The notes under the pieces were generated by a model. That model had not been told where the DNA came from. It was given only the letters and a program-made list of their open reading frames with translations, and searched no databases. Positions 1 to 12,784 of a DNA stretch of 12,784 nt are shown here, piece after piece. Positions within the stretch are counted from its first letter, which is position 1. Every line of letters begins with the position of its first letter. The translations under genes and the position numbers were made by a program. This stretch comes from a virus. Its lineage: Duplodnaviria; Heunggongvirae; Uroviricota; Caudoviricetes. Where the stretch lies: IMG/VR virus record IMGVR_UViG_2648501669_000007; one strand, 5' to 3'.

Positions 1-113
1 TTTAGTTGACCACAACAAAGTGCATTTATCATCTCCATAAAACAAAACCCGCCGTAGCGAGTTCAGATAAAATAAATCCCCGCGAGTGCGAGGATTGTTA
101 TGTAATATTGGGT

Positions 114-395
114 TTAATCATCTATATGTTTTGTACAGAGAGGGCAAGTATCGTTTCCACCGTACTCGTGATAATAATTTTGCACGGTATCAGTCATTTC
201 TCGCACATTGCAGAATGGGGATTTGTCTTCATTAGACTTATAAACCTTCATGGAATATTTGTATGCCGACTCTATATCTATACCTTCATCTACATAAACA
301 CCTTCGTGATGTCTGCATGGAGACAAGACACCGGATCTGCACAACATTGATAACGCCCAATCTTTTTGCTCAGACTCTAACTCATTGATACGCAT
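114..395 (-). CDS. ea8.5: Ea8.5 protein (lambda early-left accessory gene), 93 aa
   Basis: Intact 93-aa ORF in track; sequence MRINELESEQKDW... recognised as lambda Ea8.5; position relative to ea22 as in lambda. Confidence 0.88.
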   Translation of the reverse strand: MRINELESEQKDWALSMLCRSGVLSPCRHHEGVYVDEGIDIESAYKYSMKVYKSNEDKSPFCNVREMTDTVQNYYHEYGGNDTCPLCTKHIDD

Positions 396-586
396 TTATA
401 AACTCCTTGCAATGTATGTCGTTTCAGCTAAACGGTATCAGCAATGTTTATGTAAAGAAACAGTAAGATAATACTCAACCCGATGTTTGAGTACGGTCAT
501 CATCTGACACTACAGACTCTGGCATCGCTGTGAAGACGACGCGAAATTCAGCATTTTCACAAGCGTTATCTTTTACAAAACCGATC

Positions 587-1135
587 TCACTCTCCTTTGA
601 TGCAAATGCCAGCGTCAGACATCATATGCAGATACTCACCTGCATCCTGAACCCATTGACCTCCAACCCCGTAATAGCGATGCGTAGTGATGTCGATAGT
701 TACTAACGGGTCTTGTTCGATTAACTGCCGCAGAAACTCTTCCAGGTCACCAGTGCAGTGCTTGATAACAGGAGTCTTCCCAGGATGGCGAACAACAAGA
801 AACTGGTTTCCGTCTTCACGGACTTCGTTGCTTTCCAGTTTAGCAATACGCTTACTCCCATCCGAGATAACACCTTCGTAATACTCACGCTGCTCGTTGA
901 GTTTTGATTTTGCTGTTTCAAGCTCAACACGCAGTTTCCCTACTGTTAGCGCAATATCCTCGTTCTCCTAGTCGCGGCGTTTGATGTATTGCTGGTTTCT
1001 TTCCCGTTCATCCAGCAGTTCCAGCACAATCGATGGTGTTACCAATTCATGGAAAAGGTCTGCGTCAAATCCCCAGTCGTCATGCATTGCCTGCTCTGCC
1101 GCTTCACGCAGTGCCTGAGAGTTAATTTCGCTCAC
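587..1135 (-). pseudogene. ea22: ea22 homolog, 182 codons, interrupted by in-frame TAG at codon 56
   Basis: GTG start at 1133-1135 overlapping orf73 stop; frame runs 182 codons to TGA at 587-589; codon 56 (968-970) reads TAG, so no long ORF appears in the track; flanking residues ...IKRRD*ENEDIALTVGKLRVE... recalled as lambda Ea22. Confidence 0.8.
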
Positions 1136-1353
1136 TTCGAACCTCTCTGTTTACTGATAAGTTCCAGATCCTCCTGGCAACTTGCACAAGTCCGACAACC
1201 CTGAACGGCCAAGCGTCTTCGTTCATCTATCGGATCGCCACACTCACAACAATGAGTGGCAGATATAGCCTGGTGGTTCAGACGGCGCATTTTTATTGCT
1301 GTGTTGCGCTGTAATTCTTCAATTTCTGATGCTGAATCAATGATGTCTGCCAT
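1132..1353 (-). CDS. 73-aa TraR/DksA-like C4 zinc-finger protein (lambda orf73 equivalent)
   Basis: Intact 73-aa ORF; CxxC-(17)-CxxC motif (CCECGDPIDERRRLAVQGCRTCASC) typical of TraR/DksA family; stop overlaps ea22 start. Confidence 0.8.
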   Translation of the reverse strand: MADIIDSASEIEELQRNTAIKMRRLNHQAISATHCCECGDPIDERRRLAVQGCRTCASCQEDLELISKQRGSK

Positions 1354-1408
1354 CTTTCATTAATCCCTGAATTGTTGGTTAATACGCTTGAGGGTGAATG
1401 CGAATAAT

Positions 1409-1429
1409 AAAAAAGGAGCCTGTAGCTCC
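1409..1429 (-). terminator. Intrinsic terminator-like hairpin on the leftward transcript (possibly a lambda tL terminator)
   Basis: Stem GGAGC/GCTCC (1415-1419 / 1425-1429) followed on the minus strand by a T6 run (plus-strand A6 at 1409-1414); lies between two leftward ORFs. Confidence 0.5.
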
Positions 1430-1451
1430 ATGATGATTTTGTTTTTCATGC

Positions 1452-1733
1452 TCACCGTTCCTTAAAGACGCCGTTTAACATGCCGATCGCCAGGCTTAAA
1501 TGAGTCGGTGTGAATCCCATCAGCGTTACCGTTTCGCGGTGCTTCTTCAGTACGCTACGGCAAATGTCATCGACGTTTTTATCCGGAAACTGCTGTCTGA
1601 CTTTTTTGATTTCAGAATTAGCCTGACGGGCAATACTGCGAAGGGCGTTTTCTTGCTGAGGTGTCATTGAACAAGTCCCATGTCGGCAAGCATAAGCACA
1701 CAGAATATGAAGCCCGCTGCCAGAAAAATGCAT
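1452..1733 (-). CDS. Hypothetical small protein in the lambda orf61 region (93 aa from the first ATG; 71 aa if started at MTPQQ, 1452-1667)
   Basis: ORF in track; non-repetitive composition; the MTPQQ start at 1665-1667 overlaps the stop of an upstream 27-codon ORF (ATGA); an in-frame TGA at 1734-1736 separates it from an ATG at 1761-1763. Confidence 0.5.
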   Translation of the reverse strand: MHFSGSGLHILCAYACRHGTCSMTPQQENALRSIARQANSEIKKVRQQFPDKNVDDICRSVLKKHRETVTLMGFTPTHLSLAIGMLNGVFKER

Positions 1734-1747
1734 TCAGTGGTTGTCAT
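1664..1747 (-). CDS. Possible 27-aa hydrophobic peptide (MTTTECIFLAAGFIFCVLMLADMGLVQ)
   Basis: ATG at 1745-1747 overlaps the orf63 stop (ATGA) and its stop overlaps the next ATG (ATGA), suggesting translational coupling; strongly hydrophobic; not in the track because it is short. Confidence 0.3.
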   Translation of the reverse strand: MTTTECIFLAAGFIFCVLMLADMGLVQ

Positions 1748-1935
1748 ACCTGGTCTCTCTCATCTGCTTCTGCTTTCGCCACCATCATTTCCAGCTTTTG
1801 TGAAAGGGATGCGGCTAACGTATGAAATTCTTCGTCTGTTTCTACTGGTATTGGCACAAACCTGACTCCAATTTGAGCGAGGCTATGTGCCATCTCAATG
1901 CTCGTTCTTAACTCAACAGGAGATGCTTTGTGCAT
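1744..1935 (-). CDS. Lambda orf63-like protein, 63 aa
   Basis: Intact 63-aa ORF in track; size and position match lambda orf63 between orf60a and the orf61 region. Confidence 0.8.
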   Translation of the reverse strand: MHKASPVELRTSIEMAHSLAQIGVRFVPIPVETDEEFHTLAASLSQKLEMMVAKAEADERDQV

Positions 1936-2090
1936 ACAGCTCCCCGTTTATTATTTATCTCCTCAGCCAGCCGCTGTGCTTTCAGTGGATTTCGGGTAAC
2001 AGAAAGGCCGGGAAATACCCAGCCTCGCTTTGTAACGGAGTAGACGAAAGTGATCGCACCTACCCGGATATTATCGTGAGGATGCTTCAT
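1908..2090 (-). CDS. Lambda orf60a-like protein, 60 aa
   Basis: Track ORF 1908-2096; start chosen at the second ATG (2088-2090), which overlaps the exo stop as ATGA and gives 60 aa. Confidence 0.7.
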
Positions 2091-2767
2091 CGCCATTGTT
2101 CCCCAAATACAAAACCAATTTCAGCCAGTGCCTCGTCCATTTTTTCGATGAACTCCGGCACCATCTCGTCAAAACTCGCCATGTAATTTTCATCCCGCTC
2201 AACCACGACATAATGCAGGCCTTCACGCTTCATTCGTGGGTCATAGTTGGCAAAGTACCAGGCATCTTTTCGTGTCACCCACATGCTGTACTGCACCTGG
2301 GCCATGTAAGCCGACTTTATGGCCTCGAAACCACCGAGCCGGAACTTCATGAAATCCCGGGAGGTAAACGGGCATTTCAGCTCAAGGCCGTTGCCGTCAC
2401 TGCATAAACCATCGGGAGAGCAGGCGGTGCGCATACTTTCGTCGCGATAGATGATCGGGGATTCAGTAACATTCACGCCGGAAGTAAACTCAAACAGGGC
2501 TCTGGCGTCGTTCTCGTACTGTTTTCCCCAGGCCAGTGCTTTAGCGTTAACTTCCGGAGCCACACCGGTGCAAACCTCGGCAAGCAGGGTGTGGAAGTAG
2601 GACATTTTCATGTCAGGCCACTTCTTTCCTGAGCGGGGCTTTGCTATCACGTTGTGAACTTCTGAAGCGGTGATGACGCCGAGCCGTAATTTGTGCCATG
2701 CATCATCCCCCTGTTCGACAGCTCTCACGTCGATCCCGGTACGCTGCAGGATAATGTCCGGTGTCAT
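2087..2767 (-). CDS. exo: Lambda exonuclease (Red alpha), 226 aa
   Basis: Intact 226-aa [43 protein letters not shown]... recognised as lambda Exo; ATGA overlap with bet. Confidence 0.97.
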
Positions 2768-3549
2768 GCTGCCACCTTCTGCTCAGTGGCTTTCTGTTTC
2801 AGGAATCCGAGAGCTTTCACTGCTTCGGCCTGTGTCAGTTCTGACGATGCGCGAATGTCGCGGCGAAATATCTGGGAACAGAGCGGCAATAAGTCGTCAT
2901 CCCATGTTTTATCCAGGGCAATCAGCAGAGTGTTAATCTCCTGCATGGTTTCATCGTTAACCGGAGTGATGTCGCGTTCCGGCTGACGTTCTGCAGTGTA
3001 TGCGGTATTTTCGACAATGCGCTCGGCTTCATCCTTGTCATAGATACCAGCAAATCCGAAGGCCAGACGGGCACACTGAATCATGGCTTTATGACGTAAC
3101 ATCCGTTTGGGATGCGACTGCCACGGCCCCGTGATTTCTCTGCCTTCGCGGGTTTTGAATGGTTCGCGGCGGCATTCATCCATCCACTCGGTAACGCAGA
3201 TCGGATGATTGCGGTCCTTGCGGTAAATCCGGCATGTGCAGGATTCATTGTCCTGCTCAAAGTCCATACCATCAAACTGCTGGTTTTCATTGATGATGCG
3301 GGACCAGCCATCAACGCCCACCACCGGAACGATGCCGTTCTGCTTATCAGGGAAGGCGTAAATTTCTTTCGTCCACGGATTAAGGCCGTACTGGTTGGCG
3401 ACGATCAACAATGCGATGAACTGCGCATCGCTGGCATCACCTTTAAATGCCGTCTGGCGAAGAGTGGTGATCAGTTCCTGTGGGTCGACAGAATCCATGC
3501 CGACACGTTCAGCCAGCTTCCCTGCCAGCGTTGCGAGTGCTGTACTCAT
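2764..3549 (-). CDS. bet: Bet single-strand annealing protein (Red beta), 261 aa
   Basis: Intact 261-aa [40 protein letters not shown]... recognised as lambda Bet. Confidence 0.97.
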
Positions 3550-3554
3550 CCGTT

Positions 3555-3972
3555 TTATACCTCTGAATCAATATCAACCTGGTGGTGAGCAATGGTTTCA
3601 ACCATGTACCGGATGTGTTCTGCCATGCGCTCCTGAAACTCAACATCGTCATCAAACGCACGGGTAATGGCTTTTTTGCTGGCCCCGTGGCGTTGCAAAT
3701 GATCGATGCATAGCGATTCAAACAGGTGCTGGGGCAGGCCTTTTTCCATGTCGTCTGCCAGTTCTGCCTCTTTCTCTTCACGGGCGATCTGCTGGTAGTG
3801 ACGCGCCCAGCTCTGAGCCTCAAGACGATCCTAAATGTAATAAGCGTTCATGGCTGAACTCCTGAAAATGGCTGTGAAAATATCGCCCGCGAAATGCCAG
3901 GCTGATTAGGAAAACAGGAAAGGGGGTTAGTGAATGCTTTTGCTTGATCTCAGTTTCTGTATTAATATCCAT
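3555..3972 (-). pseudogene. gam: gam (RecBCD inhibitor) homolog, disrupted: TAG at codon 7 of the GamS frame and the long-form start out of frame
   Basis: Track holds only the C-terminal 64 aa ([26 protein letters not shown]...). Upstream in the same frame: ATG 3849-3851, MNAYYI, then TAG at 3831-3833. The [13 protein letters not shown] at 3970-3972 is 121 nt upstream, so it is in a different frame. Confidence 0.85.
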
Positions 3973-4070
3973 TTTTTATAAGCGTCGACGGCCTCACGAA
4001 ACATCTTTTCATCGCCAATAAAAGTGGCGATAGTGAATTTAGTCTGGATAGCCATAATTGTTTGATCCAT
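3927..4070 (-). CDS. kil: Kil (host cell-division inhibitor), 47 aa
   Basis: [47 protein letters not shown] forms the C-terminal 47 aa of track ORF 3927-4196; start overlaps the cIII 3' end as in lambda. Confidence 0.85.
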
Positions 4071-4203
4071 TTTTCGGGACTCCTGGCTGATTAAGTATGT
4101 CGATAAGGCGTTTCCATCCGTCACGTAATTTACGGGTGATTCGTTCAAGTAAAGATTCGGAAGGGCAGCCAGCAACAGGCCACCCTGCAATGGCATATTG
4201 CAT
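4039..4203 (-). CDS. cIII: CIII (FtsH inhibitor that stabilises CII), 54 aa
   Basis: Hand translation from ATG 4201-4203 gives [54 protein letters not shown] then TAA; too short for the track. Confidence 0.9.
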   Translation of the reverse strand: MQYAIAGWPVAGCPSESLLERITRKLRDGWKRLIDILNQPGVPKNGSNNYGYPD

Positions 4204-4275
4204 GGTGTGCTCCTTATTTATACATAACGAAAAACGCCTCGAGTGAAGCGTAATTGGTATGCGGTAACGCCGCGC

Positions 4276-4644
4276 TCAGGCGGCTTTGATAGTCATATCA
4301 TCTGGATCAAATATTCCTGATGTATCGATATCGGTAATTCTTATTCCTTCGCTACCATCCATTGGAGGCCATCCTTCCTGACCATTTCCATCATTCCAGT
4401 CGAACTCACACACAACACCATATGCATTTAATTCGCTTGAAATTGCTATAAGCAGAGCATGTTGCGCCAGCATGATTAATACAGCATTTAATACAGAGCC
4501 GTGTTTATTGAGTCGGTATTCAGAGTCTGACCAGAAATTATTAATCTGGTGAAGTTTTTCCTCTGTCATTACGTCATGGTCGATTTCAATTTCTATTGAT
4601 GCTTTCCAGTCGTAATCAATGATGTATTTTTTGATGTTTGACAT
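4276..4644 (-). CDS. ea10: Ea10 protein, 122 aa
   Basis: Intact 122-aa ORF; size and position between cIII and ral match lambda ea10. Confidence 0.85.
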   Translation of the reverse strand: MSNIKKYIIDYDWKASIEIEIDHDVMTEEKLHQINNFWSDSEYRLNKHGSVLNAVLIMLAQHALLIAISSELNAYGVVCEFDWNDGNGQEGWPPMDGSEGIRITDIDTSGIFDPDDMTIKAA

Positions 4645-4662
4645 CTATTCATATCCTCATAG

Positions 4663-4690
4663 ATAAAAAATCGCCCTCACACTGGAGGGC
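4663..4690 (-). terminator. Intrinsic terminator-like hairpin on the leftward transcript, between ral and ea10
   Basis: Stem GCCCTC/GAGGGC (4673-4678 / 4685-4690) followed on the minus strand by a T6 run (plus-strand A6 at 4665-4670). Confidence 0.45.
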
Positions 4691-4826
4691 AAAGAAGATT
4701 TCCAATAATCAGAACAAGTCGGCTCCTGTTTAGTTACGAGCGACATTGCTCCGTGTATTCACTCGTTGGAATGAATACACAGTGCAGTGTTTATTCTGTT
4801 ATTTATGCCAAAAATAAAGGCCACTA

Positions 4827-5027
4827 TCAGGCAGCTTTGTTGTTCTGTTTACCAAGTTCTCTGGCAATCATTGCCGTCGTTCGTATTGCCCATTTATCGA
4901 CATATTTCCCATCTTCCATTACAGGAAACATTTCTTCAGGCTTAACCATGCATTCCGATTGCAGCTTGCATCCATTGCATCGCTTGAATTGTCCACACCA
5001 TTGATTTTTATCAATAGTCGTAGTCAT
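4827..5027 (-). CDS. ral: Ral restriction-alleviation protein, 66 aa
   Basis: Intact 66-aa ORF MTTTIDKNQWCGQFKRCNGCKLQSECMVKPEEMF... recognised as lambda Ral. Confidence 0.9.
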   Translation of the reverse strand: MTTTIDKNQWCGQFKRCNGCKLQSECMVKPEEMFPVMEDGKYVDKWAIRTTAMIARELGKQNNKAA

Positions 5028-5097
5028 ACGGATAGTCCTGGTATTGTTCCATCACATCCTGAGGATGCTCTTCGAACTCTTCAAATTCTTCTTCCAT
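5011..5097 (-). CDS. orf28-like acidic peptide (MEEEFEEFEEHPQDVMEQYQDYPYDYDY), 28 aa
   Basis: Hand translation from ATG 5095-5097 to TGA 5011-5013; overlaps the ral start as lambda orf28 does; below track threshold. Confidence 0.55.
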   Translation of the reverse strand: MEEEFEEFEEHPQDVMEQYQDYPYDYDY

Positions 5098-5221
5098 ATA
5101 TCACCTTAAATAGTGGATTGCGGTAGTAAAGATTGTGCCTGTCTTTTAACCACATCAGGCTCGGTGGTTCTCGTGTACCCCTACAGCGAGAAATCGGATA
5201 AACTATTACAACCCCTACAGT

Positions 5222-5776
5222 TTGATGAGTATAGAAATGGATCCACTCGTTATTCTCGGACGAGTGTTCAGTAATGAACCTCTGGAGAGAACCATGTATA
5301 TGATCGTTATCTGGGTTGGACTTCTGCTTTTAAGCCCAGATAACTGGCCTGAATATGTTAATGAGAGAATCGGTATTCCTCATGTGTGGCATGTTTTCGT
5401 CTTTGCTCTTGCATTTTCGCTAGCAATTAATGTGCATCGATTATCAGCTATTGCCAGCGCCAGATATAAGCGATTTAAGCTAAGAAAACGCATTAAGATG
5501 CAAAACGATAAAGTGCGATCAGTAATTCAAAACCTTACAGAAGAGCAATCTATGGTTTTGTGCGCAGCCCTTAATGAAGGCAGGAAGTATGTGGTTACAT
5601 CAAAACAATTCCCATACATTAGTGAGTTGATTGAGCTTGGTGTGTTGAACAAAACTTTTTCCCGATGGAATGGGAAGCATATATTATTCCCTATTGAGGA
5701 TATTTACTGGACTGAATTAGTTGCCAGCTATGATCCATATAATATTGAGATAAAGCCAAGGCCAATATCTAAGTAA
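5222..5776 (+). CDS. sieB: SieB superinfection-exclusion protein (membrane protein), 184 aa
   Basis: Intact 184-aa ORF with hydrophobic segments; only rightward gene in the pL operon region; ends one base before the N stop codon, as in lambda. Confidence 0.88.
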   Translation: MMSIEMDPLVILGRVFSNEPLERTMYMIVIWVGLLLLSPDNWPEYVNERIGIPHVWHVFVFALAFSLAINVHRLSAIASARYKRFKLRKRIKMQNDKVRSVIQNLTEEQSMVLCAALNEGRKYVVTSKQFPYISELIELGVLNKTFSRWNGKHILFPIEDIYWTELVASYDPYNIEIKPRPISK

Positions 5777-6100
5777 CTAGATAAGAGGAATCGATTTTCC
5801 CTTAATTTTCTGGCGTCCACTGCATGTTATGCCGCGTTCGCCAGGCTTGCTGTACCATGTGCGCTGATTCTTGCGCTCAATACGTTGCAGGTTGCTTTCA
5901 ATCTGTTTGTGGTATTCAGCCAGCACTGTAAGGTCTATCGGATTTAGTGCGCTTTCTACTCGTGATTTCGGTTTGCGATTCAGCGAGAGAATAGGGCGGT
6001 TAACTGGTTTTGCGCTTACCCCAACCAACAGGGGATTTGCTGCTTTCCATTGAGCCTGTTTCTCTGCGCGACGTTCGCGGCGGCGTGTTTGTGCATCCAT
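5777..6100 (-). CDS. N: N transcription antiterminator, 107 aa
   Basis: Track ORF 5777-6178 contains MDAQTRRRERRAEKQAQWKAANPLLVGVSAKPVNRP... (arginine-rich motif); start assigned to ATG 6098-6100. Confidence 0.95.
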   Translation of the reverse strand: MDAQTRRRERRAEKQAQWKAANPLLVGVSAKPVNRPILSLNRKPKSRVESALNPIDLTVLAEYHKQIESNLQRIERKNQRTWYSKPGERGITCSGRQKIKGKSIPLI

Positions 6101-6258
6101 CTGGATTCTTCTGTCAGTTAGCTTTGGTGGTGTGTGGCAGTTGTAGTCCTGAACGAAAACCCCCCGCGATTGGCACATTGGCAGCTAATCCGGAATCGCA
6201 CTTACGGCCAATGCTTCGTTTCGTATCACACACCCCAAAGCCTTCTGCTTTGAATGCT

Positions 6259-6289
6259 GCCCTTCTTCAGGGCTTAATTTTTAAGAGCG
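6259..6289 (-). promoter_or_regulatory. nutL (boxB hairpin plus boxA) N-utilisation site
   Basis: Minus strand reads CGCTCTTA (boxA, 6282-6289) and GCCCTGAAGAAGGGC (boxB, 6259-6273), downstream of the pL start. Confidence 0.8.
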
Positions 6290-6319
6290 TCACCTTCATG
6301 GTGGTCAGTGCGTCCTGCT

Positions 6320-6391
6320 GATGTGCTCAGTATCACCGCCAGTGGTATTTATGTCAACACCGCCAGAGATAATTTATCACCGCAGATGGTT
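6320..6391 (-). promoter_or_regulatory. pL promoter with operators OL1, OL2 and OL3
   Basis: OL1 TATCACCGCCAGTGGTA 6331-6347, OL2 CAACACCGCCAGAGATA 6355-6371, OL3 TATCACCGCAGATGGTT 6375-6391; minus-strand -35 TTGACA (6352-6357) and -10 GATACT (6329-6334). Confidence 0.9.
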
Positions 6392-6540
6392 ATCTGTATG
6401 TTTTTTATATGAATTTATTTTTTGCAGGGGGGCATTGTTTGGTAGGTGAGAGATCTGAATTGCTATGTTTAGTGAGTTGTATCTATTTATTTTTCAATAA
6501 ATACAATTGGTTATGTGTTTTGGGGGCGATCGTGAGGCAA

Positions 6541-6566
6541 AGAAAACCCGGCGCTGAGGCCGGGTT
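6541..6566 (-). terminator. Intrinsic terminator after rexB (tImm-like)
   Basis: GC-rich hairpin AACCCGGC-CTCAGC-GCCGGGTT on the minus strand followed by TTTCTTT, immediately past the rexB stop. Confidence 0.6.
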
Positions 6567-6999
6567 ATTCTTGTTCTCTGGTCAAATTATATAGTTGGAA
6601 AACAAGGATGCATATATGAATGAACGATGCAGAGGCAATGCCGATGGCGATAGTGGGTATCATGTAGCCGCTTATGCTGGAAAGAAGCAATAACCCGCAG
6701 AAAAACAAAGCTCCAAGCTCAACAAAACTAAGGGCATAGACAATAACTACCGATGTCATATACCCATACTCTCTAATCTTGGCCAGTCGGCGCGTTCTGC
6801 TTCCGATTAGAAACGTCAAGGCAGCAATCAGGATTGCAATCATGGTTCCTGCATATGATGACAATGTCGCCCCAAGACCATCTCTATGAGCTGAAAAAGA
6901 AACACCAGGAATGTAGTGGCGGAAAAGGAGATAGCAAATGCTTACGATAACGTAAGGAATTATTACTATGTAAACACCAGGCATGATTCTGTTCCGCAT
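6565..6999 (-). CDS. rexB: RexB (membrane ion-channel component of Rex abortive infection/exclusion), 144 aa
   Basis: Intact 144-aa highly hydrophobic ORF MRNRIMPGVYIVIIPYVIVSICYLLF... recognised as lambda RexB. Confidence 0.95.
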   Translation of the reverse strand: MRNRIMPGVYIVIIPYVIVSICYLLFRHYIPGVSFSAHRDGLGATLSSYAGTMIAILIAALTFLIGSRTRRLAKIREYGYMTSVVIVYALSFVELGALFFCGLLLLSSISGYMIPTIAIGIASASFIHICILVFQLYNLTREQE

Positions 7000-7014
7000 A
7001 ATTACTCCTGATAA

Positions 7015-7854
7015 TTAATCCTTAACTTTGCCCACCTGCCTTTTAAAACATTCCAGTATATCACTTTTCATTCTTGCGTAGCAATATGCCATCTCTTCAG
7101 CTATCTCAGCATTGGTGACCTTGTTCAGAGGCGCTGAGAGATGGCCTTTTTCTGATAGATAATGTTCTGTTAAAATATCTCCGGCCTCATCTTTTGCCCG
7201 CAGGCTAATGTCTGAAAATTGAGGTGACGGGTTAAAAATAATATCCTTGGCAACCTTTTTTATATCCCTTTTAAATTTTGGCTTAATGACTATATCCAAT
7301 GAGTCAAAAAGCTCCCCTTCAATATCTGTTGCCCCTAAGACCTTTAATATATCGCCAAATACAGGTAGCTTGGCTTCTACCTTCACCGTTGTTCGGCCGA
7401 TGAAATGCATATGCATAACATCGTCTTTGGTGGTTCCCCTCATCAGTGGCTCTATCTGAACGCGCTCTCCACTGCTTAATGACATTCCTTTCCCGATTAA
7501 AAAATCTGTCAGATCGGATGTGGTCGGCCCGAAAACAGTTCTGGCAAAACCAATGGTGTCGCCTTCAACAAACAAAAAAGATGGGAATCCCAATGATTCG
7601 TCATCTGCGAGGCTGTTCTTAATATCTTCAACTGAAGCTTTAGAGCGATTTATCTTCTGAACCAGACTCTTGTCATTTGTTTTGGTAAAGAGAAAAGTTT
7701 TTCCATCGATTTTATGAATATACAAATAATTGGAGCCAACCTGCAGGTGATGATTATCAGCCAGCAGAGAATTAAGGAAAACAGACAGGTTTATTGAGCG
7801 CTTATCTTTCCCTTTATTTTTGCTGCGGTAAGTCGCATAAAAACCATTCTTCAT
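7015..7854 (-). CDS. rexA: RexA (sensor/activator component of Rex exclusion), 279 aa
   Basis: Intact 279-aa ORF MKNGFYATYRSKNKGKDKRSINLSVFLNSLLADNHHLQ... recognised as lambda RexA; sits in the cI-rexA-rexB operon. Confidence 0.95.
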   Translation of the reverse strand: MKNGFYATYRSKNKGKDKRSINLSVFLNSLLADNHHLQVGSNYLYIHKIDGKTFLFTKTNDKSLVQKINRSKASVEDIKNSLADDESLGFPSFLFVEGDTIGFARTVFGPTTSDLTDFLIGKGMSLSSGERVQIEPLMRGTTKDDVMHMHFIGRTTVKVEAKLPVFGDILKVLGATDIEGELFDSLDIVIKPKFKRDIKKVAKDIIFNPSPQFSDISLRAKDEAGDILTEHYLSEKGHLSAPLNKVTNAEIAEEMAYCYARMKSDILECFKRQVGKVKD

Positions 7855-7966
7855 AATTCAATCCATTTACTATGTTATGTTCTGAGGGGAGTGAAAATTC
7901 CCCTAATTCGATGAAGATTCTTGCTCAATTGTTATCAGCTATGCGCCGACCAGAACACCTTGCCGA

Positions 7967-8683
<717 letters not shown>

Positions 8684-8690
8684 TTAAATC

Positions 8691-8764
8691 TATCACCGCA
8701 AGGGATAAATATCTAACACCGTGCGTGTTGACTATTTTACCTCTGGCGGTGATAATGGTTGCAT
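8691..8764. promoter_or_regulatory. Right operator region: OR3, OR2, OR1 with divergent pRM and pR promoters
   Basis: OR3 TATCACCGCAAGGGATA 8691-8707, OR2 TAACACCGTGCGTGTTG 8714-8730, OR1 TACCTCTGGCGGTGATA 8738-8754; pR -35 TTGACT 8728-8733 and -10 GATAAT 8751-8756. Confidence 0.92.
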
Positions 8765-8771
8765 GTACTAA

Positions 8772-8981
<210 letters not shown>

Positions 8982-8988
8982 ATAACCC

Positions 8989-9020
8989 CGCTCTTACACA
9001 TTCCAGCCCTGAAAAAGGGC
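8989..9020 (+). promoter_or_regulatory. nutR (boxA CGCTCTTACA plus boxB hairpin GCCCTGAAAAAGGGC)
   Basis: boxA at 8989-8998 and boxB at 9006-9020 just downstream of cro; the rho-dependent tR1 region follows. Confidence 0.8.
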
Positions 9021-9074
9021 ATCAAATTAAACCACACCTATGGTGTATGCATTTATTTGCATACATTCAATCAA

Positions 9075-9121
9075 TTGTTATCTAAGGAAATACTTACATA
9101 TGGTTCGTGCAAACAAACGCA
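9075..9121 (-). promoter_or_regulatory. pRE (CII-activated promoter for repressor establishment)
   Basis: CII recognition repeat TTGC-N6-TTGC on the minus strand within the first cII codons (about 9105-9118), oriented leftward. Confidence 0.6.
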
Positions 9122-9393
9122 ACGAGGCTCTACGAATCGAGAGTGCGTTGCTTAACAAAATCGCAATGCTTGGAACTGAGAAGACAGCGGAAGCTGTGGG
9201 CGTTGATAAGTCGCAGATCAGCAGGTGGAAGAGGGACTGGATTCCAAAGTTCTCAATGCTGCTTGCTGTTCTTGAATGGGGGGTCGTTGACGACGACATG
9301 GCTCGATTGGCGCGACAAGTTGCTGCGATTCTCACCAATAAAAAACGCCCGGCGGCAACCGAGCGTTCTGAACAAATCCAGATGGAGTTCTGA
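9100..9393 (+). CDS. cII: CII transcriptional activator, 97 aa
   Basis: Track ORF 9040-9393 contains MVRANKRNEALRIESALLNKIAMLGTEKTAEAVGVDKSQISRWKRDWIPKFSMLLAVLEWG...; start assigned to ATG 9100-9102. Confidence 0.95.
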   Translation: MVRANKRNEALRIESALLNKIAMLGTEKTAEAVGVDKSQISRWKRDWIPKFSMLLAVLEWGVVDDDMARLARQVAAILTNKKRPAATERSEQIQMEF

Positions 9394-9415
9394 GGTCATT
9401 ACTGGATCTATCAAC
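9339..9415 (-). ncRNA. oop: Probable oop antisense RNA overlapping the cII 3' end (coordinates approximate)
   Basis: Minus-strand hairpin plus T6 (GTTGCCGCCGGGCGTTTTTT) at about 9339-9358 inside the cII 3' end; placement follows known lambda organisation. Confidence 0.5.
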
Positions 9416-9425
9416 AGGAGTCATT

Positions 9426-10325
9426 ATGACAAATACAGCAAAAATACTCAACTTCGGCAGAGGTAACTTTGCCGGACAGGAGCGTAATGTGGCAGATCTC
9501 GATGATGGTTACGCCAGACTATCAAATATGCTGCTTGAGGCTTATTCGGGCGCAGATCTGACCAAGCGACAGTTTAAAGTGCTGCTTGCCATTCTGCGTA
9601 AAACCTATGGGTGGAATAAACCAATGGACAGAATCACCGATTCTCAACTTAGCGAGATTACAAAGTTACCTGTCAAACGGTGCAATGAAGCCAAGTTAGA
9701 ACTCGTCAGAATGAATATTATCAAGCAGCAAGGCGGCATGTTTGGACCAAATAAAAACATCTCAGAATGGTGCATCCCTCAAAACGAGGGAAAATCCCCT
9801 AAAACGAGGGATAAAACATCCCTCAAATTGGGGGATTGCTATCCCTCAAAACAGGGGGACACAAAAGACACTATTACAAAAGAAAAAAGAAAAGATTATT
9901 CGTCAGAGAATTCTGGCGAATCCTCTGACCAGCCAGAAAACGACCTTTCTGTGGTGAAACCGGATGCTGCAATTCAGAGCGGCAGCAAGTGGGGGACAGC
10001 AGAAGACCTGACCGCCGCAGAGTGGATGTTTGACATGGTGAAGACTATCGCACCATCAGCCAGAAAACCGAATTTTGCTGGGTGGGCTAACGATATCCGC
10101 CTGATGCGTGAACGTGACGGACGTAACCACCGCGACATGTGTGTGCTGTTCCGCTGGGCATGCCAGGACAACTTCTGGTCCGGTAACGTGCTGAGCCCGG
10201 CCAAACTCCGCGATAAGTGGACCCAACTCGAAATCAACCGTAACAAGCAACAGGCAGGCGTGACAGCCAGCAAACCAAAACTCGACCTGACAAACACAGA
10301 CTGGATTTACGGGGTGGATCTATGA
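9426..10325 (+). CDS. O: O replication initiator, 299 aa
   Basis: Intact 299-aa ORF MTNTAKILNFGRGNFAGQERNVADLDDGYARLSNMLLEAYSGADLTKRQF... recognised as lambda O; contains the ori iterons. Confidence 0.97.
   Translation: MTNTAKILNFGRGNFAGQERNVADLDDGYARLSNMLLEAYSGADLTKRQFKVLLAILRKTYGWNKPMDRITDSQLSEITKLPVKRCNEAKLELVRMNIIKQQGGMFGPNKNISEWCIPQNEGKSPKTRDKTSLKLGDCYPSKQGDTKDTITKEKRKDYSSENSGESSDQPENDLSVVKPDAAIQSGSKWGTAEDLTAAEWMFDMVKTIAPSARKPNFAGWANDIRLMRERDGRNHRDMCVLFRWACQDNFWSGNVLSPAKLRDKWTQLEINRNKQQAGVTASKPKLDLTNTDWIYGVDL
9774..9900. repeat. ori-lambda: four about 19-bp iterons (O binding sites) followed by an AT-rich unwinding region
   Basis: Direct repeats ATCCCTCAAAACGAGGG, ATCCCCTAAAACGAGGG, ACATCCCTCAAATTGGGGG, ATCCCTCAAAACAGGGGG at 9774-9860, then an A-rich tract 9861-9900, all inside O. 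Confidence 0.88.
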
Positions 10326-11023
10326 AAAACATCGCCGCACAGATGGTTAACTTTGACCGTGAGCAGATGCGTCGGATCGCCAACAACATGCCGGAACAGT
10401 ACGACGAAAAGCCGCAGGTACAGCAGGTAGCGCAGATCATCAACGGTGTGTTCAGCCAGTTACTGGCAACTTTCCCGGCGAGCCTGGCTAACCGTGACCA
10501 GAACGAAGTGAACGAAATCCGTCGCCAGTGGGTTCTGGCTTTTCGGGAAAACGGGATCACCACGATGGAACAGGTTAACGCAGGAATGCGCGTAGCCCGT
10601 CGGCAGAATCGACCATTTCTGCCATCACCCGGGCAGTTTGTTGCATGGTGCCGGGAAGAAGCATCCGTTACCGCCGGACTGCCAAACGTCAGCGAGCTGG
10701 TTGATATGGTTTACGAGTATTGCCGGAAGCGAGGCCTGTATCCGGATGCGGAGTCTTATCCGTGGAAATCAAACGCGCACTACTGGCTGGTTACCAACCT
10801 GTATCAGAACATGCGGGCCAATGCGCTTACTGATGCGGAATTACGCCGTAAGGCCGCAGATGAGCTTGTCCATATGACTGCGAGAATTAACCGTGGTGAG
10901 GCGATCCCTGAACCAGTAAAACAACTTCCTGTTATGGGCGGTAGACCTCTAAATCGTGCACAGGCTCTGGCGAAGATCGCAGAAATTAAAGCTAAGTTCG
11001 GACTGAAAGGAGCAAGTGTATGA
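10322..11023 (+). CDS. P: P replication protein (DnaB helicase loader), 233 aa
   Basis: Intact 233-aa ORF MKNIAAQMVNFDREQMRRIANNMPEQYDEKPQVQQVAQIINGVF...; ATGA overlap with the O stop. Confidence 0.97.
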   Translation: MKNIAAQMVNFDREQMRRIANNMPEQYDEKPQVQQVAQIINGVFSQLLATFPASLANRDQNEVNEIRRQWVLAFRENGITTMEQVNAGMRVARRQNRPFLPSPGQFVAWCREEASVTAGLPNVSELVDMVYEYCRKRGLYPDAESYPWKSNAHYWLVTNLYQNMRANALTDAELRRKAADELVHMTARINRGEAIPEPVKQLPVMGGRPLNRAQALAKIAEIKAKFGLKGASV

Positions 11024-11310
11024 CGGGCAAAGAGGCAATTATTCATTACCTGGGGACGCATAATAGCTTCTGTGCGCCGGACGTTGCCGCGCTAACAGGC
11101 GCAACAGTAACCAGCATAAATCAGGCCGCGGCTAAAATGGCACGGGCAGGTCTTCTGGTTATCGAAGGTAAGGTCTGGCGAACGGTGTATTACCGGTTTG
11201 CTACCAGGGAAGAACGGGAAGGAAAGATGAGCACGAACCTGATTTTTAAGGAGTGTCGCCAGAGTGCCGCGATGAAACGGGTATTGGCGGTATATAGAGT
11301 TAAAAGATGA
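11020..11310 (+). CDS. ren: Ren protein (relieves Rex exclusion), 96 aa
   Basis: Intact 96-aa ORF MTGKEAIIHYLGTHNSFCAPDVAALTGATVTSINQAAAKMARAGLLVIEG...; ATGA overlap with the P stop. Confidence 0.9.
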   Translation: MTGKEAIIHYLGTHNSFCAPDVAALTGATVTSINQAAAKMARAGLLVIEGKVWRTVYYRFATREEREGKMSTNLIFKECRQSAAMKRVLAVYRVKR

Positions 11311-11335
11311 CCATCTATATTACTGAGCTAATAAC

Positions 11336-11366
11336 AGGCCTGCTGGTAATCGCAGGCCTTTTTATT
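11336..11366 (+). terminator. Intrinsic terminator (tR2-like) between ren and ninB
   Basis: Stem AGGCCTGC/GCAGGCCT (11336-11343 / 11352-11359) followed by TTTTTATTT. Confidence 0.7.
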
Positions 11367-11383
11367 TGGGGGAGAGGGAAGTC

Positions 11384-11824
11384 ATGAAAAAACTAACCTT
11401 TGAAATTCGATCTCCAGCACATCAGCAAAACGCTATTCACGCAGTACAGCAAATCCTTCCAGACCCAACCAAACCAATCGTAGTAACCATTCAGGAACGC
11501 AACCGTAGCTTAGACCAAAACAGGAAGCTATGGGCCTGCTTAGGTGACGTCTCTCGTCAGGTTGAATGGCATGGTCGCTGGCTGGATGCAGAAAGCTGGA
11601 AGTGTGTGTTTACCGCAGCATTAAAGCAGCAGGATGTTGTTCCTAACCTTGCCGGGAATGGCTTTGTGGTAATAGGCCAGTCAACCAGCAGGATGCGTGT
11701 AGGCGAATTTGCGGAGCTATTAGAGCTTATACAGGCATTCGGTACAGAGCGTGGCGTTAAGTGGTCAGACGAAGCGAGACTGGCTCTGGAGTGGAAAGCG
11801 AGATGGGGAGATCGGGCTGCATGA
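11384..11824 (+). CDS. ninB: NinB (Orf recombination mediator), 146 aa
   Basis: Track ORF 11366-11824; start assigned to ATG 11384 after RBS GGAGAGGGAA; MKKLTFEIRSPAHQQNAIHAVQQILPDPTKPIVVTIQERNRSLDQNRKLW... recognised as lambda NinB. Confidence 0.9.
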   Translation: MKKLTFEIRSPAHQQNAIHAVQQILPDPTKPIVVTIQERNRSLDQNRKLWACLGDVSRQVEWHGRWLDAESWKCVFTAALKQQDVVPNLAGNGFVVIGQSTSRMRVGEFAELLELIQAFGTERGVKWSDEARLALEWKARWGDRAA

Positions 11825-12348
11825 CTATCAAATCAAATACGCCAGCACACGACAAGGACTGCTGGCAAACGCCGCTTTGGCTTTTTGATGCACTGGATAT
11901 TGAGTTTGGATTCTGGCTGGATTCGGCAGCGAGCGACAAAAATGCTCTGTGTGCTCACTGGCTAACTGAGGCCGACGACGCGCTCAATTCTGAGTGGGTA
12001 AGCCACGGTGCAATCTGGAATAACCCACCGTACAGCAATATCAGGCCGTGGGTGGAAAAAGCCGCTGAGCAGTGCATACAACAGCGACAGACGGTAGTTA
12101 TGCTTGTGCCAGAGGATATGTCAGTCGGATGGTTCAGCAAGGCTCTGGAGAGTGTCGACGAAGTTCGCATTATCACTGATGGACGGATTAATTTTATCGA
12201 ACCATCGACAGGGTTGGAGAAGAAGGGAAACAGCAAAGGCTCCATGCTGCTGATTTGGCGACCGTTCATCAGTCCTCGACGGATGTTTACTACCGTATCC
12301 AAAGCGGCATTGATGGCGATCGGGCAGGGCGTCAGGAGGGCGGCATGA
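11821..12348 (+). CDS. Phage-type DNA N6-adenine methyltransferase (Dam-like, orphan), 175 aa
   Basis: ATG 11821 overlaps the ninB stop (ATGA); catalytic NPPY(S) motif (WNNPPYSN) and N-terminal [24 protein letters not shown] typical of the phage Dam family; occupies the slot of lambda ninC/ninD. Confidence 0.85.
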
Positions 12349-12414
12349 GGCGACAGCGACGAAGTTTCACCGACATCATCTGCGAAAACTGCAAATACCT
12401 TCCAACGAAACGCT
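12345..12414 (+). pseudogene. ninE: ninE 5' fragment (23 codons) truncated by IS1 insertion
   Basis: ATG 12345 overlaps the methyltransferase stop; [23 protein letters not shown] matches the recalled lambda NinE N-terminus; the frame is cut at 12414/12415 by the IS1 terminal inverted repeat. Confidence 0.7.
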
Positions 12415-12784
12415 GGTGATGCTGCCAACTTACTGATTTAGTGTATGATGGTGTTTTTGAGGTGCTCCAGTGGCTTCTGTTTCTATCAGCTGTCCCTCCT
12501 GTTCAGCTACTGACGGGGTGGTGCGTAACGGCAAAAGCACCGCCGGACATCAGCGCTATCTCTGCTCTCACTGCCGTAAAACATGGCAACTGCAGTTCAC
12601 TTACACCGCTTCTCAACCCGGTACGCACCAGAAAATCATTGATATGGCCATGAATGGCGTTGGATGCCCGGCAACACCCCGCCTTATGGGCCTTGGCCTC
12701 AACACGATTTTACGTCACCTAAAAAACTCACGGCCCCAGTCGGTAACCCCCCCCATACACCCGCGCACTGACGACATCGTCAGC
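12415..12784 (+). mobile_element. IS1-family insertion sequence, left end and first about 370 bp, running off the window edge
   Basis: Terminal inverted repeat GGTGATGCTGCCAACTTACTGAT at 12415; InsA coding sequence and the A6C frameshift motif (CTAAAAAAC) present. Confidence 0.9.
12470..12784 (+). CDS. insA: IS1 InsA (partial in window; frame lacks the expected stop)
   Basis: GTG start at 12470; translation [66 protein letters not shown]... matches InsA, then diverges near 12640-12784 with an apparent extra base before the canonical stop. Confidence 0.6.

Follow-up and report, generated by a model that had tools for sequence, protein, structure and literature searches.

The prophage analyzed here appears to carry a single copy of IS1 that cut into codon 24 of ninE, and the predicted outcome is loss of NinE with expression of Q at most moderately reduced or delayed. 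We place the probability of this reading at about 0.8. It draws on a stretch of DNA of 12,784 nt, referred to throughout as the window, which holds the left part of the insertion, and on a second viral contig that holds the right junction together with the genes beyond it. The finding is ordinary and of an already known kind, a textbook case of IS1 inserting into an accessory gene of a prophage. As such, it matters little beyond annotation, where the proper label is ninE::IS1 with a 9-bp duplication.

The host prophage and its antitermination system

By identity and gene content, the window reads as the early part of a lambdoid prophage that is closely similar to phage lambda. Positions 18 to 11824 are 99.15% identical to lambda (NC_001416), and in a comparison with 5,426 complete E. 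coli genomes, lambda lysogens come closest over the whole window, with 99.2% identity. The N, RexA, RexB, CI, Cro, CII, O, P, and NinB proteins are each 100% identical to their lambda counterparts, and sequence comparison finds oL, oR, nutL, and nutR identical as well. The parts of a lambda-type N antitermination system are all present in the sequence, namely N, the boxB elements of nutL and nutR, and a terminator that should require N to be passed (Table 1). The hairpin part of this terminator, in the interval between ren and ninB, occupies 11336-11359 and is followed by the T tract; it sits at the position of lambda tR2, which we take it to be.

The window also carries a Dam-family methyltransferase gene in place of lambda ninC/ninD, and this methyltransferase module is found commonly among the mosaic prophages of E. 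coli. At the other end, positions 1 to 17 are without a lambda match, as are the adjoining 74 nt on the left in a sister contig (L016, 11136-11209). A mosaic joint lies just left of ea8.5 at the window start, and the sister contig begins there. The sister contig, a draft sequence (JRGD01000078.1, GCA_000754845.1, 12,580 nt), is 100.000% identical to the window over positions 1 to 11135, the region compared; judging by its length, its end should lie about 92 nt inside the same IS1.

Table 1. Features of the window that bear on the insertion and on transcription across it.
Feature	Coordinates	Strand	Basis
N antiterminator gene	5777..6178	-	protein 100% identical to lambda N
nutR boxB	9005..9021	+	identical to lambda
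Intrinsic terminator, hairpin and T tract, ren/ninB interval	11336..11367	+	terminator scan, 8 pairs; identical to lambda
Dam-family N6-adenine methyltransferase gene, 175 aa	11821..12348	+	PF05869, E = 6.4e-65; annotation of relatives
ninE 5' fragment, 23 whole codons and base 1 of codon 24	12345..12414	+	PF05322, lambda NinE match
IS1 target site CGAAACGCT	12406..12414		copied after the IS1 right end on L041 as a 9-bp duplication
Fusion codons TGG-TGA, closing the cut ninE frame inside the IS1 inverted repeat	12414..12419	+	sequence; ORF 12255-12419
IS1 left terminal inverted repeat (IRL), GGTGATGCTGCCAACTTACTGAT	12415..12437	+	identical to the IS1 end in L001 (E. coli EC6868)
Visible IS1, element positions 1 to about 369	12415..12784	+ (pR direction)	leaves the window edge
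Promoter-like site within IRL	12422..12449	+	consensus scan, 9/12 matches; same site in L001
insA, GTG start	12470..12746	+	InsA domains, translation, alignment
Probable error-laden tail, 116 nt	12669..12784		alignment to the EC6868 IS1 copy
AAAAAAC motif	12721..12727	+	sequence; inside the low-quality tail

The left junction and the IS1 copy

The ninE start codon overlaps the TGA of the methyltransferase gene as ATGA, with its ATG at 12345. Codons 1 to 23 (12345-12413) match positions 1 to 23 of the 58 positions of the Pfam NinE family (PF05322, E = 1.7e-13), with a score of 50.7 bits for the 23-residue fragment against a gathering cut-off of 25, and the fragment is 95% identical to residues 3 to 23 of lambda NinE. 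The T at 12414 forms the first base of codon 24, and IS1 starts at 12415; the fused product consists of 23 NinE residues and a Trp and ends at the TGA of 12417-12419. An earlier note on this DNA had placed an IS1 in ninE, between the replication genes and Q, with the ninE frame broken after 23 codons at the terminal inverted repeat. That placement is borne out to the base, and the element is co-directional with rightward transcription.

The inserted element is assigned here to the IS1A/IS1B type, on a match far above chance. From 12415 to 12668 it is identical to the IS1 copy of E. coli EC6868 at 254 of 254 positions, and IS1 matches in E. coli genomes comprise 9,681 records. It shares with the IS1 of E. 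coli and Shigella (IS1A/IS1B/IS1R type) the same 23-bp IRL, the zinc-ribbon and HTH domains of InsA, a 9-bp target duplication, and, within the low-quality tail, the AAAAAAC motif, with full identity over the first third of the element. No biological difference is seen in this comparison, and only the last 116 nt deviate. Both domains of InsA are recognized in the insA frame (12470-12730; PF03811, 2.7e-21; PF12759, 9.4e-27), while insB' lies mostly past the window edge. The promoter-like site within IRL presumably corresponds to the IS1 transposase promoter, which is placed there, and the AAAAAAC motif is presumably the -1 frameshift site between insA and insB', which lies at this place in IS1.

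The deviating tail is probably low-quality contig-end sequence. Aligned to the EC6868 copy, it differs by 18 substitutions, in most of which the new base is C, and by one inserted nucleotide at 12731; this extra C breaks the insA frame and puts the usual insA TAA (12744-12746) out of frame. Four or five of the deviations are ordinary differences among IS1 types. We attribute the remainder to a poor contig end, not to biology, because the shift from 0 differences in 254 positions is abrupt, the base bias is one-sided, and a natural counterpart is lacking, the best natural match to 12655-12784 reaching 89.2% among more than 72,000 IS1 places in 5,426 complete E. coli genomes. The possibility of a genuine IS1 variant was rejected on the latter figure. 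The last 116 nt of the window thus deserve a flag as unreliable.

The right junction, target duplication, and empty site

The right junction was sought with a pattern in which the end of IS1 is followed by a duplication of 8 to 14 bp, with GAAACGCT as its last bases, and then by the continuation of ninE. It was found once, at the extreme end of viral contig IMGVR_UViG_2648501669_000006 (L041, 8,432 nt), and scans of genome and metagenome contig collections with this pattern gave no match. The reverse complement of L041 starts with AAGTTGGAGTCATTACC, the last 17 nt of IS1 and the part of its right inverted repeat that is seen, on a contig separate from the window. There follow CGAAACGCT and then CCAGAAATAAACGC, so that after the duplication L041 continues with ninE codons 24 to 58. 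Joined to the 5' part in the window, these restore an intact NinE of 58 aa, equal to the NinE of relatives. The IS1 right end holds no Met in the ninE frame, and no called ORF crosses the right junction.

An uninterrupted relative, L039 (GCA_012890055.1), provides the empty site. Window positions 11020-12414 correspond to L039 4001-5395 at 100% identity over 1,395 nt, L041 from the duplication onward corresponds to L039 5387-8291 at 99.35% over 2,905 nt, and the two flanks overlap there by exactly 9 bp (5387-5395). IS1 target duplications are 8 or 9 bp in length (PMC12428005). The event is therefore best read as a simple IS1 transposition, neither a chimera nor a truncation. The features that the earlier note had proposed to look for in the adjoining sequence, namely the IS1 right end, a target duplication (here of 9 bp), and the rest of ninE, are all on L041.

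The window and L041 are two contigs, and we infer that they belong to one genome because it is very unlikely that a separate event would have hit the very same base and left the complementary duplication. A single full-size IS1 is likewise the presumed content of the gap, the middle of the element being on neither contig; draft assemblies break at IS1 because it is a repeat. Searches with the left junction itself returned nothing: the exact 38-mer was absent from species-representative genomes, IMG/VR viral contigs, and metagenome contigs, a shorter left-junction pattern and a marker for the gam amber mutation described below were absent from the viral contigs, and none of the 5,426 complete E. 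coli genomes contained the left junction.

Genes beyond the insertion

In window orientation, L041 carries beyond ninE the genes for NinX, a 64-aa ORF, RusA, YlcG, and Q and an opposite-strand porin gene, followed by holin, lysozyme, Rz, a KilA-N protein, an SDH-type protease, and the start of the terminase small-subunit region, where its end matches the same region of the EC6868 sequence (L001). NinX, RusA, Q, porin, holin, lysozyme, and Rz were identified by Pfam. Q is intact (PF06530, E = 4e-53) and starts about 1.24 kb past the IS1 end, and the gene order Ren-NinB-Dam-NinE-NinX-RusA-YlcG-Q is also found in uninterrupted relatives. Of the genes that the earlier note had anticipated downstream, Q is thus in place, whereas NinX, RusA, and YlcG stand where ninF to ninI were expected. 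The thought that Q might be missing for unrelated reasons is contradicted by an intact Q and lysis genes beyond IS1. Truncation of the prophage at IS1 was rejected on the right junction and the downstream genes of L041.

Expected effect on Q expression

Classically, IS1 polarity arises where Rho terminates transcription on poorly translated RNA. Here the insA stop and the ninX start lie about 555 nt apart on the rightward transcript, and the RNA between them is poorly translated. One IS1 would have transposed into ninE codon 24 and generated the 9-bp duplication CGAAACGCT, in the orientation of pR transcription, leaving ninE reduced to 23 residues and a Trp and the rest of the operon intact. 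On ordinary transcripts, the 555-nt stretch would permit Rho termination, that is, polarity. Polymerases from pR, however, should already have been N-modified at nutR on reaching ninE, and most of them should read through to Q. Only N-modified polymerase is expected at ninE at all, because the terminator upstream of ninB must first be passed, and as N, the nut sites, and this terminator are identical to those of lambda, the transcripts arriving there are expected to be Rho-resistant. The phenotype would then be absence of NinE, with Q moderately lowered or delayed at the most, and the prophage would not be dead.

Adhya, Gottesman, and de Crombrugghe are said to have reported in 1974 that N releases the polarity of IS insertions. 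In lambda r32, the pR operon carries an IS2; this phage reportedly grows on hosts of wild type but is hypersensitive to nus defects. Read-through of an IS element under N is not complete in every case, and some weakening of Q expression may occur. A literature search on lambda r32 gave no result. Published work describes lambda-N complexes as processive and able to withstand Rho-dependent termination (PMC12360218), places all genes beyond cro under N antitermination, and finds the nin genes, ninE included, to be non-essential (PMC10695390). Overall, a near-neutral effect on Q is the outcome that we consider likely, a measurable attenuation has a clearly smaller chance, and a severe defect is the least probable of the three.

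The earlier note had instead drawn a chain from strong polarity through loss of Q to a defective prophage. In this alternative, IS1 would be strongly polar on the pR delayed-early transcript, leaving too little Q, the late genes off, and no lytic growth. The position of IS1 upstream of Q in the same operon would suit such an effect, and the poorly translated RNA after insA is a plausible Rho entry region, yet the chain leaves out antitermination. N and the two nut sites are those of lambda, as is the terminator upstream of ninB, which should let only N-modified polymerases reach ninE, where their complexes would withstand Rho (PMC12360218). A scan of the full IS1 found no intrinsic-terminator-like site in the rightward direction, and Shigella phage SfIV is inducible with an IS1 adjoining Q. 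We therefore regard strong polarity as unlikely and the claim of a defective prophage as unsupported.

The premise that a block in the nin region would starve Q holds for one kind of obstacle. Roadblocks of dCas12a in the nin region abolish plaque formation by Q starvation and are, according to the authors, insensitive to N (PMC10695390). These are hard roadblocks formed by a DNA-bound protein, unlike a Rho site, which is N-sensitive. Partial attenuation of Q by the IS1 may therefore occur. Any N-resistant block in the nin region would matter for Q.

It could also be speculated that IS1 acts as an added Rho-dependent obstacle, so that expression of Q comes to need full N/Nus function to an unusual degree, as reported for lambda r32, and that induction in turn boosts IS1 transposition, although we consider this doubtful. 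Were it true, the barrier would raise the threshold for commitment to lysis or delay it, stabilizing the lysogen. Prophage induction would at the same time flood the co-directional insA/insB' with antiterminated transcription, and a transposition burst might follow; upstream read-through is known to increase IS1 transposition (PMC12428005).

For an IS element in an operon under a processive antiterminator, polarity is not to be assumed, and a prophage is not to be called defective from such an insertion alone.

Comparison with known insertions

Lambdoid prophages commonly carry IS insertions, not all of which affect propagation (PMC9997748). The closest parallels are E. coli EC6868 (L001, 14563-15330) and S1-CAM-04-C (L002, 6563-7330), in which an IS1 lies in the same ninE allele and in the same orientation, with the same Dam-NinE-NinX-RusA-YlcG-Q surroundings, in a prophage that otherwise looks complete. 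In both, the element sits 46 nt further 3' than in the window, where it follows codon 39 and is flanked by a duplication of 8 bp, TAAAAACC, and the immunity region differs from that of the window. The insertion in these two genomes is accordingly read as an independent event. That a gene of only 177 bp has been hit twice might point to a preferred IS1 target.

Shigella phage SfIV similarly has a full IS1 adjoining Q and co-directional with rightward transcription. Its element (35186-35953; L030, 5001-5768) lies downstream of Q, between Q and the holin gene, whereas that of the window lies upstream of Q. It starts 238 nt past Q and is followed by two leftward low-GC genes and the lysis cassette. 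SfIV is UV-inducible and forms plaques (PMC3851460).

The lambda nin5 deletion shows that ninE and its neighbors are dispensable for plaque formation (PMC10695390). It differs from the insertion described here in that nin5 removes terminators and lowers the N dependence of Q, whereas IS1 adds a potential termination barrier. The insertions of lambda r14 (IS1) and r32 (IS2) resemble that of the window in placing an IS between nutR and essential downstream genes of the pR operon in the presence of lambda N and nut sites. Both reportedly precede O and P and were the subject of genetic studies, whereas with the IS1 of the window in the nin region only Q is at stake.

Alternative structures of the insertion

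Two IS1 ends flanking extra DNA, that is, a composite transposon with cargo inserted in ninE as a unit, would give the same 9-bp duplication, and what is seen of the element amounts to a left end of 370 nt in the window and a right end of 17 nt on L041. There is no sign of cargo, however, the insertion found in ninE of the two complete genomes described above consists of one 768-bp copy in each, and single IS1 insertions are far commoner, which makes a composite element quite improbable.

Still less probable is that L041 comes from another strain and that the IS1 of the window borders a deletion or inversion, with the prophage truncated at ninE. IS1 promotes adjacent deletions, the prophage has other lesions, the linkage of window and L041 rests on inference, and the viral collection in which L041 was found lacks the left part of the window. 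Against this stands the improbability, noted above, of a second insertion at the same base with a complementary 9-bp duplication. The junction occurs in 0 of 5,426 complete E. coli genomes, and IS1 in this ninE occurs in 2 of them, both at the other site.

An assembly chimera, with IS1 reads wrongly joined to the end of a prophage contig, was also named in the earlier note and is rejected here as hardly credible, since for all that the window end is error-laden and contigs stop inside the repeat, the join falls exactly at base 1 of the IRL, L041 supplies the corresponding right junction, complete with target duplication and the rest of ninE, and a second assembly (JRGD01000078.1) should, judging by its length, end inside the same IS1.

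Other lesions and rearrangements

Two early genes on the minus strand carry nonsense mutations private to this prophage. In gam (3555-3972), a G>A change at 3833 turns CAG into TAG at codon 7 of the 98-aa Gam, a codon that is intact in all 12 relatives covering the site; the gene also has a 1-nt insertion at 3868, and the open part is a 64-aa C-terminal fragment. In ea22 (587-1135), a G>A change at 970 leaves a 55-aa N-terminal fragment, which is rare (about 15 contigs in the protein collection) and is shared with JRGD01000078.1. Exact matches to Exo, to the Gam fragment, and to Ren, by contrast, belonged only to unrelated prophages. Together, the two mutations hint at prophage decay.

Substitutions private to the window among 13 relatives number 14, and 8 of the 14 are G>A or C>T (positions 970, 1212, 1600, 3833, 6110, 11318, 11506, and 12214). 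Most of these eight are C>T on the transcribed sense strand, rightward or leftward as the case may be; that at 6110, in N, is opposite, and that at 11318 is intergenic. The pattern could be a deamination signature, for which the numbers are too small to judge.

Several assemblies (L031, L032, L036, L037, and L040) share a rearranged prophage in which ren-NinB, together with a truncated copy of the Dam gene, has become fused to DUF1382, ea22, xis, and int, with NinE-NinX-RusA-YlcG-Q inverted on the other side. This arrangement looks like an inherited internal inversion.
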